Part shown: positions 17,594 to 42,858 of the stretch, piece after piece | Numbering within the stretch: the first letter of the stretch is position 1 | How the letters are laid out: each line of letters begins with the position of its first letter | Source: Escherichia phage vB_EcoM_G2494 | Sequence record: MK327935.1 | DNA: 64,000 bases | Strand: one strand, 5' to 3' | Position numbers and translations under genes: made by a program | The notes under the pieces: generated by a model | Told to the model about the DNA's origin: nothing | Seen by the model: only the letters and a program-made list of their open reading frames with translations | Databases searched by the model: none

Positions 17594-17902
17594 TCATTTA
17601 GACAAATAATCATTCTGTGCAATCCGGTCGGCGTATGCTGGTGTTATGTCAATCGCCAGCACTTTAACGCGTGCTTTCTTGCGACCTGGGTTTTCTCGTA
17701 ACCAGTGCTCATGACCGTGAACATTTTTATACTGCGATGCTTCTTCGAAGGTACGGATCGGACCTGGGTAATCAGCGTAAAGGATCTCTAGATCTTCGGT
17801 GATGTAAAAATATACATCGTAATTGCTGTTCTCTAGCTTAAGCAGAGACTTTCGGAACATTGGGAGATTTTCGCGGGTAAATTCAAAGATATTATCTTTC
17901 AT
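17594..17902 (-). CDS. HxHW-motif small protein family member a
   Basis: YDVYFYITEDLEILYADY...HGHEHW...VLAIDI. Confidence 0.6.
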   Translation of the reverse strand: MKDNIFEFTRENLPMFRKSLLKLENSNYDVYFYITEDLEILYADYPGPIRTFEEASQYKNVHGHEHWLRENPGRKKARVKVLAIDITPAYADRIAQNDYLSK

Positions 17903-17926
17903 AGTATTATCCTCAATAGTTGGATG

Positions 17927-17950
17927 AAAAGGGGGGCTTAACGCCCCGTA
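17927..17950 (-). terminator. hairpin GGGGCTTAACGCCCC (copy 2)
   Basis: same stem-loop as 13374-13388; follows stop of 17953 gene. Confidence 0.4.
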
Positions 17951-17952
17951 TA

Positions 17953-18240
17953 TTAAAACAGTCCTTCCTGTACACCGTAGTAGAGTTCATCGCTGATAAT
18001 TTCATTAATGCGACGGTGTGCATATTCCTGATTTGCGAAGTTGTCAGCAAGTTCTACTTTAGTTTCGCCGTCATGAGTCCATTTAGTGATAACTTTACCA
18101 TCTGCAAATTTGAAGTTGAACTCTTTAGCTACCGCATCGCGTACCAGACGTGCAAACTTATTGTTGCGGATTGCATTGTCGGTTTCGTGTTCAGCGTGAG
18201 CGAATTTGTTAACTTTCAGAGTGATAGTAATGTATGCCAT
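17953..18240 (-). CDS. hypothetical early protein (95 aa), paralog of 21518-21829
   Basis: shared VAKEFNFKF / LAKEFNTKI segment. Confidence 0.55.
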   Translation of the reverse strand: MAYITITLKVNKFAHAEHETDNAIRNNKFARLVRDAVAKEFNFKFADGKVITKWTHDGETKVELADNFANQEYAHRRINEIISDELYYGVQEGLF

Positions 18241-18286
18241 AATTTGATTCTCCTAGTTAGAAAGTGTATCTCGTTTCGATGGGTGT

Positions 18287-18315
18287 ATTATGCTATACAC
18301 CCGATCTTATGTCAA
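18287..18315 (-). promoter_or_regulatory. sigma70-like early promoter
   Basis: TTGACA-17-CATAAT. Confidence 0.55.
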
Positions 18316-18321
18316 CACTTT

Positions 18322-18600
18322 TTATAAAATAATTTTTTGATATTTTTCTATGATGTTTGTGTAGGTCACATCAACCGCGAGCACCGTTGCTTCGAATCCA
18401 CCGTTTAGCCAATGGCTATGATCGTGATCGTTAAAGAAACCGAGGCCAGTGCGAAGACCTTCTTTATATTCGGCGCGTACATTCAGTTTGTCGTCGATAA
18501 ACAGATAAAACCATGAATTTTTACTAGGATTGATGATACAACCTTTCAGATTAGGGAGAATATCACGACTAAGAATAAACTTATCACCTACTTTGAACAT
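18322..18600 (-). CDS. HxHW-motif family member b
   Basis: WFYLFIDDKLNV...DHDHSHW...VLAVDV; ATG at 18600 with GAGGA RBS. Confidence 0.6.
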   Translation of the reverse strand: MFKVGDKFILSRDILPNLKGCIINPSKNSWFYLFIDDKLNVRAEYKEGLRTGLGFFNDHDHSHWLNGGFEATVLAVDVTYTNIIEKYQKIIL

Positions 18601-18604
18601 AATA

Positions 18605-18925
18605 TTAGTCCTCACTTATAAGGTCAAACCAATTGTTTTTCGCATAATGCTTAATGCGTGCTTGATCTGCTTCCGCTGGTGATAGATTCCATGCGATCAC
18701 TACAACTTCTGACGCATCGTCATCCGTTTCTGATATCCAATGATTGTGATTCATACAGTTATTTGCTATCGCGTGAGCAAATGATCTCATTACTGGAGAC
18801 GTATAATCATAGTAACGGATTTTCAGATTTTCATCAACGTACAAATAGATCGTATAAGGTTTATATTCAGTAACCAGTAACAGACAGTTACGCAATTCTG
18901 GGAAAATCTTTTTAGTTAATTTCAT
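18605..18925 (-). CDS. HxHW-motif family member c
   Basis: YTIYLYVDENL...NHNHW...VVIAWN. Confidence 0.6.
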   Translation of the reverse strand: MKLTKKIFPELRNCLLLVTEYKPYTIYLYVDENLKIRYYDYTSPVMRSFAHAIANNCMNHNHWISETDDDASEVVVIAWNLSPAEADQARIKHYAKNNWFDLISED

Positions 18926-19127
18926 AGTCTATTTCTCCGTAATACACGGTAATCCATTTTTCTTCATACTTTGTATCTTTCCAACACACAATCCCGTTTA
19001 CTGTGCAATCTTTGGAATTGACGAATGATTCATATTGTTCTGCGTCTTCCATCATTGCATGAGCGGTCTTTTCATCGAATATATCGCAGATCGCTTTATA
19101 TGCTCAATAATCTTTAAATTTGCTCAT
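18912..19127 (-). pseudogene. paralog of 19130-19339 interrupted by in-frame TGA at codon 8
   Basis: MSKFKDY-TGA-AYKAI...; TGA at 19106-19104 where intact copy has AAA; frame otherwise open for 71 codons. Confidence 0.45.
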
Positions 19128-19129
19128 AA

Positions 19130-19339
19130 TTAAGACCACTCAAGAGTTTTTGAAAACACATCTATCCATTGTTGAGTATATGCGGTTTCTTTCCATGATA
19201 CAATACCAGTAGAATAATGGTTTTTGTTTCCAGAAAAGGACGGGCATTTTGATGCGTCTTCCATCATCTTTTCGGCGAACTCTGGTTCGTATACTCGCAA
19301 GATCTGTTGATATGCTTTGTAGTCTTTAAATTTGCTCAT
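19130..19339 (-). CDS. hypothetical early protein (69 aa)
   Basis: intact copy MSKFKDYKAYQQ... Confidence 0.55.
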   Translation of the reverse strand: MSKFKDYKAYQQILRVYEPEFAEKMMEDASKCPSFSGNKNHYSTGIVSWKETAYTQQWIDVFSKTLEWS

Positions 19340-19604
19340 AATCGTTAACTACCTTATCAGCTTCTTTTATTGTTTTTACATCAACTGCGATAACCCGTAA
19401 AGGTTCGTCATGGTTCCACCAATGATCGTGAATATCGGCTTGTGATTTATCACCAAAGGAATCACGAATATCATTTTTACATTTATAGCTAATGTGACCT
19501 TCATAGTCAACATAAAGGTAATTATCGAAAATCGGCGTTTTTAAGATCATACCGAAAAATCTTTCTTTGTGTGTCTTATCCAGTGTTGCAGTAATTCGCA
19601 TCAT
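19326..19604 (-). CDS. HxHW-motif family member d
   Basis: YLYVDYEGHISY...HDHWW...VIAVDV. Confidence 0.6.
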   Translation of the reverse strand: MMRITATLDKTHKERFFGMILKTPIFDNYLYVDYEGHISYKCKNDIRDSFGDKSQADIHDHWWNHDEPLRVIAVDVKTIKEADKVVNDYEQI

Positions 19605-19616
19605 AATATATTCCTC

Positions 19617-19796
19617 TTAGAAAGGGATGGTCATTTCTTGAGCTTGTACATTCTCGTTAGGATTAAACTTCATCCAACCGATATTGTCTACCAGCATATG
19701 CACATTTTTATCATATCCTACGTGAGTAGTCAACACTAAATGTGATTTACCTTCAACGATGATTTCCATGTACTTCTGAACTTCGATAGCTTTCAT
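19617..19796 (-). CDS. small early protein (59 aa)
   Basis: ATG with cassette RBS GGAGAATCAAA; not in ORF track. Confidence 0.5.
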   Translation of the reverse strand: MKAIEVQKYMEIIVEGKSHLVLTTHVGYDKNVHMLVDNIGWMKFNPNENVQAQEMTIPF

Positions 19797-19860
19797 TTTG
19801 ATTCTCCGTTTGTTGTCTTGATGGGAGTATCTTACTACTCCCTTTAATCATTGTCAACGA

Positions 19861-20028
19861 TTATTTGTTAATTTCCGGTGCGTTGCTTGGATAGTAGCCT
19901 TCTTTAACACCCAGATATTTTGCAACCATTCCGGTGATCTTCTGTGCTACTACGATATCGAATTTCAGGTAGTCTTCACCGTGGTTTGCTACAATGTATG
20001 CTTCGCATTCTGCTTTAGTCTGGAACAT
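19861..20028 (-). CDS. small early protein (55 aa), copy 2 of duplicated gene
   Basis: ORF track 86-aa call over-extends through promoter; true ATG at 20028 behind cassette RBS. Confidence 0.55.
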   Translation of the reverse strand: MFQTKAECEAYIVANHGEDYLKFDIVVAQKITGMVAKYLGVKEGYYPSNAPEINK

Positions 20029-20062
20029 TTTTGATTCTCCTATATCTCGTTGGTATGTGTGT

Positions 20063-20091
20063 AGTATAGGGGATCGGTGATCCCCTGTCAA
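20063..20091 (-). promoter_or_regulatory. sigma70-like early promoter
   Basis: TTGACA, palindromic 17-bp spacer GGGGATCACCGATCCCC, TATACT. Confidence 0.55.
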
Positions 20092-20101
20092 CAACTTTTT
20101 T

Positions 20102-20410
20102 TTATTCTTCATCTTCATCATTATCTTTATATGCGTACTTCATAAATTTGTCTGCTACTTCGTCCGCGTTTTCAGGTTCTACGTCTGACGCTAGGACAAC
20201 AGCTAGTTCGGTTTTGTCGTTTCCATCATACCAATGATTATGAGTGTCGTTTTCTTCGATATAAAACGAATCAGTTGGAGTTGTGCGACAATATACGTCT
20301 AAATTCCCATCGATATAAAAGATCCAATCCGAATACAAAATGATTGTTTTAGCAAGATTTTTATTGTCTCTCACAAAAGGTTCTGAGACAAATAGCTTAG
20401 TTTGTTCCAT
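20102..20410 (-). CDS. HxHW-motif family member e
   Basis: WIFYIDGNLDVY...HNHWY...AVVLASDV; ATG at 20410 with GAGGAAAA RBS. Confidence 0.6.
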   Translation of the reverse strand: MEQTKLFVSEPFVRDNKNLAKTIILYSDWIFYIDGNLDVYCRTTPTDSFYIEENDTHNHWYDGNDKTELAVVLASDVEPENADEVADKFMKYAYKDNDEDEE

Positions 20411-20426
20411 AACATTTTCCTCAAAA

Positions 20427-20618
20427 TTATACAGCTTCGTAAACTTCCCAATGTCCAGCGCCAACACGCTTAACGAAAAGGTTTTCTTTGATGTTATTCA
20501 TAAACGTCTGGATGGATTTAATGCGGTTTGAAGGTTTCCAGTCTTCGTTGGAATTGCGTCGATACATCATAACATTACCAGTTCGCTTATATTCAGCAAC
20601 CATTTTAAGACCATACAT
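20427..20618 (-). CDS. hypothetical protein (63 aa)
   Basis: ORF fills gap between family members e and f; no clear RBS. Confidence 0.4.
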   Translation of the reverse strand: MYGLKMVAEYKRTGNVMMYRRNSNEDWKPSNRIKSIQTFMNNIKENLFVKRVGAGHWEVYEAV

Positions 20619-20669
20619 AATATTATCATCAATTTGTGGGAGAGTATTACCCTCCCGATTATTGTTATA

Positions 20670-20978
20670 CTACATTACGCAAAATGGCGTGTCAATACTT
20701 CTTTTTGCTGTTCCGCTAAGATTCTCGATCTCTCCTGGCATAACATCAACCGCCAGAACTTCTACAACATCCTCTGATCCTAACCAGTGAGTATGACCTT
20801 TGTAGAACTTGATATCCCATTTATCGCTATCGCTAGCCCACCACACATCACCGTCTATAAAGTTGATGTAAAGCACACTACGACACATTGAATTAGTTAC
20901 TTTCAATACTGCGCCTTTCATCTCTTCCACGGTATGGTCTTCCATTTTGAAGACCTCGCCTACCTTAACTTTTGCCAT
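20670..20978 (-). CDS. HxHW-motif family member f
   Basis: LYINFIDGDVWW...HTHWL...VLAVDV; start coupled to stop of member g (TAACATG). Confidence 0.6.
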   Translation of the reverse strand: MAKVKVGEVFKMEDHTVEEMKGAVLKVTNSMCRSVLYINFIDGDVWWASDSDKWDIKFYKGHTHWLGSEDVVEVLAVDVMPGEIENLSGTAKRSIDTPFCVM

Positions 20979-20979
20979 G

Positions 20980-21246
20980 TTACATGTTCCGAATATGTTT
21001 AGATGCATCTTCCAGTTCGTCGATAGTGACACTGTGAGCCAGTAAGTGTACTGGTTGTGGTTCTTCACCTTCCATAGTATTGATCAGATGACCGTTTCCT
21101 GGGTGGAATGTATCGTTGCCGTTCCAAATAGCATACACATCATCTTCTGTTACGTAGATAATAAGTCCAATCGGTGATTCTGGTAATTGAAAAATTTTAC
21201 CCACTGCATCTTTGCGATTGTCTACGATATCTTTGACTGTCTTCAT
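20980..21246 (-). CDS. HxHW-family-related protein g (divergent)
   Basis: LIIYVTEDDVYAIW...HPGNGHL...HLLAHSV. Confidence 0.5.
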   Translation of the reverse strand: MKTVKDIVDNRKDAVGKIFQLPESPIGLIIYVTEDDVYAIWNGNDTFHPGNGHLINTMEGEEPQPVHLLAHSVTIDELEDASKHIRNM

Positions 21247-21903: not shown

Positions 21904-21996
21904 CAACTTTTTTGAATTATTTTTTCATGAGCTTAATGGCTTCTTCCATAGCCAGCACATTTCGATAGTTAGGGTATCGTGTTAGATCGTCATACA

Positions 21997-22028
21997 TTCG
22001 CTTAAGGGTGGATTCGCTTAAGGGTGGA
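21997..22028. repeat. perfect 16-bp tandem duplication (TTCGCTTAAGGGTGGA x2)
   Basis: two adjacent identical 16-mers at 21997-22012 and 22013-22028; creates the stop of the 22002-22262 ORF. Confidence 0.9.
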
Positions 22029-22262
22029 AACTTCCTCAAACTCTGGGTTTTCTAGATACAGTTGAACAAATTGTTTCTCTACCATCTCGGCTTTTAGCTT
22101 GTCTGCTTGTTCCTGTTCATATGATTTAGTTGGACCCAACACCAACAAAATGATAAAGGTGATCAACGATAGGAGAACATAACCGATAACGCTACGGTTT
22201 AAACGGCTTGCGTACATGCCTACCAGGAAAACAAAAAGGATATAGATAAACAGAAAGAACAT
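22002..22262 (-). CDS. small membrane protein (86 aa), apparently C-terminally truncated
   Basis: two hydrophobic helices; stop generated by 16-bp duplication, old frame stays open 26 further codons. Confidence 0.5.
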   Translation of the reverse strand: MFFLFIYILFVFLVGMYASRLNRSVIGYVLLSLITFIILLVLGPTKSYEQEQADKLKAEMVEKQFVQLYLENPEFEEVSTLKRIHP

Positions 22263-31243: not shown

Positions 31244-31343
31244 ATGTTCCTCCGTTTAGATGTGCGTATTATGCTATGGCAAGATCAGATTGTCAACACC
31301 CAATAACAAAAAAGTCGCCACTATGGGCGACTTTGAACAAACA

Positions 31344-36444: not shown

Positions 36445-37665
36445 TTATACTGCCATTTGAGCGGTGATCGCTGGATGGCTTTGATAGTTGTGAATTTTAA
36501 AGTCTTTCGGAGTCTTTGTCAATACCTCATCTAAAGATTTAAATTCCGGCAACTCAATTGTTGGTTTATCAAACGGAACACGGCTTAACTGTTCCATAAC
36601 TTGATCAAAGTGGTTTTTGTAAATGTGAGTATCTCCACCAGAGAAAATCAGTTCTCCTACCTCAAGATCACACATTTTCGCTATGATGTGAGTTAACAGC
36701 GCATAGCTGGCAACATTAAAGGGCAAGCCCAAAAAGCTGTCTACGCTTCGCTGAAACCACATACAAGACAGTTTACCTTCATTGACGTAGAATTGCACGA
36801 AAGGATGACATACACCTAATACAGCATTATGTGTTCCTTGTACGTTCCATGAGTCAATAATGATCCGGCGATCCGTTGGATTATTTTTAATTTGTTCAAT
36901 CACGTTTTGTAACTGGTCTTCCCAAATCTTCGGGCGATAGACATATTCTTCATCGTCTTTAGGGCTTGATGTGTCTACATCCATACTAACAAAGATCGTG
37001 GTATCAGGTGCTAAAATGTCACCGCCCAGATATTCATTATCAAACAGATAACCGAAATAACCATCATCTACCCATTCCTGGAATCCCCACAAGCAATATG
37101 CATCATTAACAAAATTAGATTGAGTCTTCCAGTGATCTGCTACCAGAATATAATCAAACTCTTCATAACGCATACCACGCCAGATAGCACATAAACGGTC
37201 TTCTGTTTCATTGGTTGGCGTAAAGTCTTCTACCCACGGGTGTTTAAATGTATGTGTATATTTGCTCTTAACGCGCTTAATTTTGATTTCACCGTGTGGA
37301 TGAATCGGTTTGCGTCGCCATGCCATACCATACATATTGCCGACATTATAACCATTGAATCGCAAAGGATTCTTTTCTTTCATATCAAGACAGTTGCCGC
37401 GCCAAATGTCGAAGGCTTCTTCGTCAAACTTACCGCGTGTAATTTCCTGTAAGCGACGGCGGTCAAGTGATCCCTCCATAAACCATAGCAATTCACCAAT
37501 TACAGAGGCTGTAGCCATCTTTTTAGTGGTCAGTAAGGGGAAACCCTTGCTTAAGTCAATTCGCATTTCTGCACCGAATTTAGAGAGCGTACCTATCCCC
37601 GTTCGGTCTTCACGAGGCCAGCCATTATCAAGAACATCACGCAACAGTTTCAAATATTCTTTCAT
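36445..37665 (-). CDS. td: thymidylate synthase with ~120-aa in-frame insertion
   Basis: ThyA motifs DRTGIGT, catalytic Cys in LGVCHPF, MWFQRSVDSFLGLPFN; 406 aa versus T4 Td 286 aa. Confidence 0.8.
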   Translation of the reverse strand: MKEYLKLLRDVLDNGWPREDRTGIGTLSKFGAEMRIDLSKGFPLLTTKKMATASVIGELLWFMEGSLDRRRLQEITRGKFDEEAFDIWRGNCLDMKEKNPLRFNGYNVGNMYGMAWRRKPIHPHGEIKIKRVKSKYTHTFKHPWVEDFTPTNETEDRLCAIWRGMRYEEFDYILVADHWKTQSNFVNDAYCLWGFQEWVDDGYFGYLFDNEYLGGDILAPDTTIFVSMDVDTSSPKDDEEYVYRPKIWEDQLQNVIEQIKNNPTDRRIIIDSWNVQGTHNAVLGVCHPFVQFYVNEGKLSCMWFQRSVDSFLGLPFNVASYALLTHIIAKMCDLEVGELIFSGGDTHIYKNHFDQVMEQLSRVPFDKPTIELPEFKSLDEVLTKTPKDFKIHNYQSHPAITAQMAV

Positions 37666-37999
37666 CCCACATCACCTTTTTCTTATTGATTGCTTTCTTA
37701 CGCAGTTTTGCTACTGTCTCGTCAATATCGATAAAGACAACGCCACGGTCGAATACAGTAGCAGGTCTTGAGATATCGCTATTTTCTTGCACAGGAAGCC
37801 ATGATGCGCTCGCTTCATCATAGAGATATTATAAACCGTAATAATCTACGGCTACTGCGTAGTTTTCACTGGTAGCCGTCCATAATTGAATAATACCGAC
37901 TTTCATTATTGTTCCCGTCCGCAATGTAAGCACCGACTACCAGCAAACATTAAAGATTCACCACAATGTTTGCACTCATAATCTGTCAGAATTTTCATG

Positions 38000-42262: not shown

Positions 42263-42661
42263 TTAACCCTCTTTCGTCATTAATTGAAAACCACGTTCAG
42301 CTTTTGAGATTTCGCTAGGACTTAAATCGTCACCCACATATTCTAGCATCATTTCTCGGATAATGTCAAGTGCTTTTTCATCACCTGATTTTAACTCGAA
42401 CTCAAGTTCATAGTGAGCATCTCCCATGACTTCGCCGACTTTGCAATAATAGAAAGTGTCTTTGCACATTTCCACTATAGCACCCTCAAGGTCAAGTGTC
42501 AATGACTTGCGGTATGTCCTTACTTGCAATAAAGGAACGATAAGGTCGGAGTTTACGCCTAGACTATCAACATAATGATAGAAATCATCCATTGTTGAAA
42601 AAGTGATTTCTTCTCGGTTGAATAGTCCAGATTCACGATCACCTATTTTGAGCATGATCAA
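42263..42661 (-). CDS. hypothetical protein (132 aa)
   Basis: ORF. Confidence 0.5.
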   Translation of the reverse strand: MIMLKIGDRESGLFNREEITFSTMDDFYHYVDSLGVNSDLIVPLLQVRTYRKSLTLDLEGAIVEMCKDTFYYCKVGEVMGDAHYELEFELKSGDEKALDIIREMMLEYVGDDLSPSEISKAERGFQLMTKEG

Positions 42662-42858
42662 TGATCTATTAACGTCAAGTCTAGATAAATTCCTTTTCGA
42701 CGCAGTGCATGATCTTCGTTATCATAATAAAATTCGTGTTTTAGTGTGTTAGCATGATCTACGATATTGTACCCGTCATACATTGCTACCCACAAATCAC
42801 AGATTGTTTCGACGCCAATTTGTGAGTGTGCATAGTATTTTAATTCAAGTTCTTTCAT
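42658..42858 (-). CDS. hypothetical protein (66 aa)
   Basis: ORF. Confidence 0.45.
   Translation of the reverse strand: MKELELKYYAHSQIGVETICDLWVAMYDGYNIVDHANTLKHEFYYDNEDHALRRKGIYLDLTLIDH

Follow-up and report, generated by a model that had tools for sequence, protein, structure and literature searches.

Programmed readthrough of UGA is described for the coat/A1 gene of phage Q-beta, where the stop codon is conserved and ends a complete functional protein, and where the extension made beyond it is essential. Opal (UGA) nonsense mutants of T-even phages represent a second known situation, in which one transition creates UGA early in a gene and a leaky phenotype is expected owing to misreading of the codon by Trp-tRNA. 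The interrupted gene analysed here, which we call copy B, shares with Q-beta coat/A1 an in-frame UGA, an open frame beyond it and an E. coli phage as its carrier. However, copy B has a private stop, placed at codon 8, with a peptide of only 7 residues before it. With the classical T-even opal mutants copy B has in common a single transition to an early UGA, but the change appears here to be spontaneous or at least unselected, falls in an apparently non-essential gene and comes with no mutagen-like C>T bias. The closest described gene is ORF201 of phages RB49 and Phi1 (phi1p201; phrog_8471), which has the same locus and the same flanking genes as copy B. Alleles of the Phi1/JK32 type are 96-97% identical to copy B at the protein level, leaving the stop aside, and all other members of the RB49/Phi1 ORF201 family have CGA where copy B has TGA. 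The stop in copy B is an ordinary kind of event in a known, uncharacterised gene family.

The window, by which we mean the whole 64-kb stretch of DNA analysed, belongs to Krischvirus (RB49-like 'pseudo-T-even' coliphages, Straboviridae). Its best megablast matches are 96-97% identical, and megablast returned no record identical to the window from the collection searched. The locus is a small early-gene block situated between alt (ADP-ribosyltransferase) and DNA ligase and matches ORF182-ORF212 of RB49. The position of copy B between an ORF202-like and an ORF200-like gene is conserved in MIZ4, Phi1, E26, RB49 and 15 other phages, and an intact CDS of 216 nt is annotated at this position in MIZ4, Phi1, JK32, ECD7 and others.

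Copy B occupies positions 18912-19127 on the minus strand and is 71 codons in length. Read on the coding strand from 19127, it begins ATG AGC AAA TTT AAA GAT TAT TGA GCA, with the start codon at 19127-19125, and translation of 19127-18912 gives MSKFKDY, a stop, AYKAICDIFDEKTAHAMMEDAEQYESFVNSKDCTVNGIVCWKDTKYEEKWITVYYGEIDYEIN and a final stop. The frame is therefore interrupted, TGA being codon 8 (19104-19106, minus strand), and after it 63 sense codons follow before the TAA at 18914-18912. The TGA differs from CGA (Arg) by one C>T change, which corresponds to G>A at position 19106 of the plus strand of the window. Copy A, the intact neighbour, is located at 19130-19339 on the same strand, with 2 nt between its end and the first codon of copy B, and encodes a 69 aa homologue of Phi1 ORF202; it starts with MSKFKDYK and has AAA (Lys) as codon 8. 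A gap-free alignment of the two proteins covers 68 residues and gives 43% identity (E=3e-20), and both copies match the phrog_8471 profile end to end (E=2e-35 for copy B and 1e-36 for copy A). With codon 8 set back to Arg, residues 1-68 of copy B align to positions 3-70 of the 71 in this profile (E=2.1e-35). Their mutual identity and common profile match indicate a true pair of paralogs and no chance resemblance. The translation thus agrees with the preliminary description, in which copy B was said to begin MSKFKDY like its neighbour and to have TGA at 19106-19104 where the neighbour has AAA; the alignment and the shared family likewise bear out what was said there of a frame that stays open for 63 more codons with similarity to the neighbour. 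The internal ATG pair, which had been placed at 19045-19040, is actually found at 19055-19050 on the minus strand. It forms codons 25-26 of copy B, lies in frame 48 nt past the stop and heads a residual ORF of 47 aa (18912-19055).

The gene downstream of copy B (18605-18925, minus strand; 106 aa, phrog_9345) has its start within copy B, overlapping the last 14 nt. It possesses its own GGAG at 18938-18935, also inside copy B, with a Shine-Dalgarno (SD) duplex energy of -6.6 kcal/mol. Its translation should therefore be independent of ribosomes crossing copy B. Further along the same strand, the list of ORFs starts a 97-aa gene at the GTG at 18615, and the ATG at 18600 is preceded by a strong GAGG (-8.4 kcal/mol); this second position is likely to be the true start because of its strong GAGG and because it agrees with the 92-aa annotation in relatives. 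The phrog_8471 pair is interleaved with six or more small genes of 92-132 aa that form an array of diverged paralogs (approximately 17594-21246, minus strand) and have the motif H-x-H-W ... (V/I)-L-A-(V/I)-D. The genes of this array belong to phrog_9345, 17255, 15972 and 15965, show weak cross-matches to each other and have no Pfam match.

The family to which copies A and B belong has no Pfam match either, and a Foldseek search against the PDB found no relative (best E=5.9). Against BFVD, the Foldseek hits were all uncharacterised phage proteins, among them some of Aeromonas phage phiAS7 and of Yersinia phage fHe-Yen3-01. For copy A, AlphaFold modelling based on a shallow alignment gives a small protein with four predicted helices, with a pLDDT of 88 for the best model and 67-70 for the other four. 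When 1.84 billion representatives were searched exhaustively with a profile, only 10 proteins were recovered at E<=1e-3, the common core of which reads A-x-MMEDA-x(3-4)-SF ... IV-W-x-(D/E)-T-x-Y. It is plausible, as a conjecture from the position of the pair in an early hyperplastic region, that the family has an accessory role in host takeover or anti-defence. The pair is variable elsewhere as well. In RB49, copy A (ORF202, positions 416-679 of the retrieved locus) has lost its usual stop and runs 16-19 residues into copy B, giving a divergent, extended C-terminus. Two public protein clusters resemble frameshifted variants, P0005 of copy B and P0006 of copy A.

The ancestral state of codon 8 was read from a comparison of the locus in 21 relatives, in which both copies were tabulated. 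Copy B is present in 20 of these, and its codon 8 is CGA (Arg) in every one, including alleles of the Phi1/GEC-3S type (95-98% DNA identity) and of the RB49/E26 type (about 79-85%). In the DNA alignment, a single C>T transition separates TGA from this CGA. The 20 genomes read base by base were taken from roughly 55 database relatives, the others being near-duplicates of those and none of them an exact match to the 81 nt around the TGA. Arg is also present at position 8 in three metagenomic protein clusters. No exact match to a 26-mer spanning the TGA was found in IMG/VR, JGI metagenome contigs or GTDB genome contigs; the corresponding CGA 26-mer occurs in two viral and four metagenome contigs. 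Similarly, phage records contain no exact match to the 81-nt stretch around the stop, the closest being JK32 at 98.8% with one mismatch, and codon 8 of JK32 is CGA. A screen for private substitutions also flagged the stop as a G>A change private to the window. The presence of CGA in every relative, together with the absence of the TGA 26-mer and 81-mer, shows that the stop is derived and private to this sequence. The locus has the features of a nonsense pseudogene, namely intact orthologues, a sense codon one step away from the stop and a derived state confined to one lineage. The comparison of orthologs proposed in the preliminary description, when carried out, finds CGA in 20/20 relatives and TGA in none, which fits a recent mutation.

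In the relatives, copy B behaves as a protein-coding gene under purifying selection, as indicated by a dN/dS of about 0.18 between Phi1-type and RB49-type alleles (pS 0.65, pN 0.22). The interrupted allele itself has changed little. Stop aside, it differs from JK32 by one synonymous and no non-synonymous change over the first 62 codons compared. The C-terminus of copy B is EIDYEIN (L66I/E67D), where others have ELEYEIN. We considered these two substitutions as decay following inactivation and rejected this, since the same EIDYEIN is found in an ENA metagenome contig (L022), which points to an older functional allele. That contig is truncated at codon 25 of copy B, so that codon 8 lies outside it, and over codons 25-71 it has four base differences with all 47 residues identical. 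The lack of decay downstream of the stop suggests that the nonsense mutation is recent. Such a lack fits a very recent event, and it would fit equally a gene that is still in use.

Taken together, copy B is, with high probability, an incipient pseudogene: an early-region accessory gene of a Krischvirus, small and dispensable, whose allele in this phage was inactivated recently. On this reading, one C>T transition would have converted the ancestral CGA (Arg) to an opal TGA at codon 8, and most ribosomes would stop after the 7-residue peptide MSKFKDY. The phage would tolerate the loss of copy B, the gene being presumably non-essential and a 43%-identical paralog being intact directly upstream. 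The organisation of phage JSE, in which copy A is followed directly by the next gene and copy B is absent, indicates that copy B is dispensable in the genus, because copy A occurs there without it. Residual full-length copy B would be made solely when host Trp-tRNA(Trp) misreads UGA in competition with RF2. The resulting R8W protein would amount to roughly the percent level in K-12-type hosts and would be a by-product with no designed mechanism behind it. The preliminary description had offered three readings of the TGA, as a recent inactivating mutation, as a readthrough site or as a stop followed by reinitiation at the ATG pair. The first of these is in accord with the CGA of all relatives and the private C>T change; the other two found no support, for reasons given below.

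Copy B is not the only damaged gene. Comparison of the window with five relatives (Sf20, MIZ4, PHB13, FL20 and ELT4), represented by about 49 kb each, revealed three further private gene-breaking lesions, all of them in other small accessory genes. The first is in the homologue of RB49 ORF236, located between frd and td (37640-37906, minus strand), where a coding-strand C>T change has turned CAA at codon 26 into TAA (37831-37829). This codon is CAA in RB49 and MIZ4, in which the gene is intact, and the gene is uninterrupted in PHB13, FL20 and ELT4 as well. The second is a frameshift in a membrane-protein gene resembling RB49 ORF211 (21916-22262, minus strand). Here a 16-nt tandem duplication (TCCACCCTTAAGCGAA twice, 22028-21997) shifts the frame of a protein which is 114 aa long in Sf20 and PHB13, and an in-frame deletion of 15 nt is also present (junction 22175-22161). 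The third affects a CYTH-domain gene, homologous to Phi1 gp245 (42263-42858, minus strand), in which a private 1-nt deletion with its junction within 42693-42676 (TATGCTCGA > TAT-CTAGA) splits a protein of 198 aa in relatives into ORFs of 66 aa and 132 aa. Several private non-synonymous transversions are present in this gene as well. Since these lesions differ in kind, and since TAA is the codon created at the second premature stop, a decoding mechanism specific for TGA cannot explain the pattern. The four private disruptions show a general loss of accessory genes and no TGA-specific signal. Two further 'nonsense' calls from the automatic screen turned out to be artefacts: the one at 31258 lies upstream of a start codon and the one at 42719 was read in the wrong frame owing to the frameshift.

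As this sequence alone shows the change, one may ask whether the phage itself carries CGA, the T having entered the assembly through a consensus error or through fixation of a minority variant. The other private gene-breaking lesions in the window would be in line with such an artefact, and so would a surplus of C>A/G>T changes in the private set, where 59 of them stand against 27 in the opposite direction. Against an artefact, the sequence around the substituted base (GATTATTGAGC) is non-repetitive, the change is no homopolymer indel, and CGA>TGA is a classic path of true mutation. The 16-nt tandem duplication is likewise a product of replication slippage rather than a typical base-calling error. 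The private substitutions as a whole point in the same direction. There are 285 of them across 46,246 comparable positions (window 1-50882 against five relatives), and 76 stand in a near-identical background: 49 synonymous, 24 non-synonymous, two flagged as nonsense (that at 31258 not being real) and one non-coding. Isolated private substitutions are thus synonymous over non-synonymous by 2:1, where random errors would be expected to favour the non-synonymous class. This synonymous excess suggests real divergence filtered by selection and no random base-calling error, and it leaves the idea of a generally error-prone assembly unsupported. Taken with the slippage-type duplication, it makes a real mutation the more likely explanation, and we regard an artefact as unlikely.

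The second C>T nonsense mutation had also raised the idea of a mutagen signature. This was rejected: C>T and T>C each occur 45 times among the private changes, and G>A (44) is nearly matched by A>G (40), a balance that leaves no signature of the kind expected from deamination or hydroxylamine. Among the transversions, the window-private excess of C>A plus G>T over A>C plus T>G (59 vs 27) is an observation in its own right, which AT-biased mutation pressure, oxidative damage or artefact could cause.

Can a real TGA still be of use to the phage? UGA is the leakiest stop codon in E. coli, with readthrough of about 2% at 37 C and 4% at 25 C in K-12 reporters (PMC10570021). We have considered the speculative scheme in which the TGA allele acts as a leaky, host-dependent 'dimmer', supplying R8W copy B only where the host, like K-12, terminates weakly through RF2, and there at the percent level. 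Together with the three other private knockouts it would then mark a lineage in which selection, such as that met on adapting to a laboratory host, favours the shedding or down-tuning of several accessory early genes. This seems very doubtful to us. The narrower proposal, that UGA is read as Trp often enough to provide a deliberately low or host-dependent expression of copy B, draws on the same leakiness and on the fully intact frame past the stop. Against it, the stop is conserved in no relative. It lies at codon 8, which is no domain boundary, and the product upstream of it is a 7-residue peptide, unlike the coat protein of Q-beta. Residues found at the site in close or remote homologues are K, R, L or V and never Trp or Cys. 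The second private stop in the window is TAA, which UGA readthrough could not rescue. Nor does the RNA offer a stimulatory element: a folding energy of -11.1 kcal/mol was obtained for the 83 nt that start just ahead of the stop, where shuffled sequences have a mean of -12.2 (z=0.45). A structure 3' of the stop, whether of SECIS type or stimulating readthrough, was accordingly rejected as a candidate, the fold being no better than that of shuffles. With an unconserved stop at such a position, no RNA structure and TGA serving as a normal terminator in this phage, the suggestion in the preliminary description of a readthrough site is not supported as a programmed feature, and functional readthrough is in our judgement very improbable. 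Beyond programmed recoding, background near-cognate readthrough of UGA alone could occur. Some full-length R8W copy B may arise in this manner, and this could suffice for a small regulatory protein.

Initiation or reinitiation at ATG25/ATG26 (19055-19050), yielding a functional C-terminal protein of 47 aa, is suggested by the presence of two in-frame ATGs 48 nt past the stop with an open frame behind them. The context of these codons argues against it. They have no SD, the duplex with the anti-SD being -0.9 kcal/mol against -5 to -9 for true starts nearby, and 64% of the ATGs in the neighbourhood equal or better them in SD pairing; an independent start at the internal ATG was rejected on this ground. 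Two out-of-frame ATGs, at 19075 and 19060, would be met before them. Moreover, the Met-Met of codons 25-26 belongs to the conserved MMED core of helix 2 across the family, which makes these ordinary internal codons and no start. In the predicted fold, a product beginning at ATG25 would be without helix 1 and half of helix 2. The reinitiation put forward in the preliminary description is therefore hardly credible.

Selenocysteine insertion or a reassigned code, in which the TGA would be a sense codon as the open frame beyond it might suggest, is effectively refuted by stop-codon usage and the ancestral CGA: of the 71 ORFs in the window that reach 100 aa, 23 end in TGA; ARAGORN finds no tRNA gene in the 64 kb, which leaves neither tRNA-Sec nor a suppressor tRNA; the RNA past the stop forms no SECIS-like hairpin; and homologues have Arg or Lys at the site and no Cys. 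Genome-wide recoding of TGA and a suppressor tRNA were rejected in the same way, TGA being a common terminator and tRNA genes numbering zero. RB49, Phi1 and JSE are also reported to have 0 tRNA genes (PMC2993671, Table 2). The stop in copy B is best taken as a recent, ordinary loss of one dispensable gene and has no recoding signal, as is also indicated by its absence from all relatives examined.

For annotation, this means that copy B is to be marked as a disrupted gene, with no call of the 47-aa ORF and no claim of recoding. The disruption adds a small data point to the view that small genes in the Krischvirus hyperplastic region between alt and ligase, the phrog_8471 pair among them, are individually dispensable. 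If a stock of the phage exists, it represents a natural multi-knockout, which can be compared with intact relatives for phenotypes of uncharacterised genes.

A further observation concerns td, next to the disrupted ORF236 homologue. The thymidylate synthase ORF of the window (36445-37665, minus strand) is 406 aa in length and its counterpart in Sf20 is 410 aa, whereas the td product of T4, at roughly 286 aa, is far shorter. The length of the ORF suggests that td of Krischvirus contains a large in-frame insertion.
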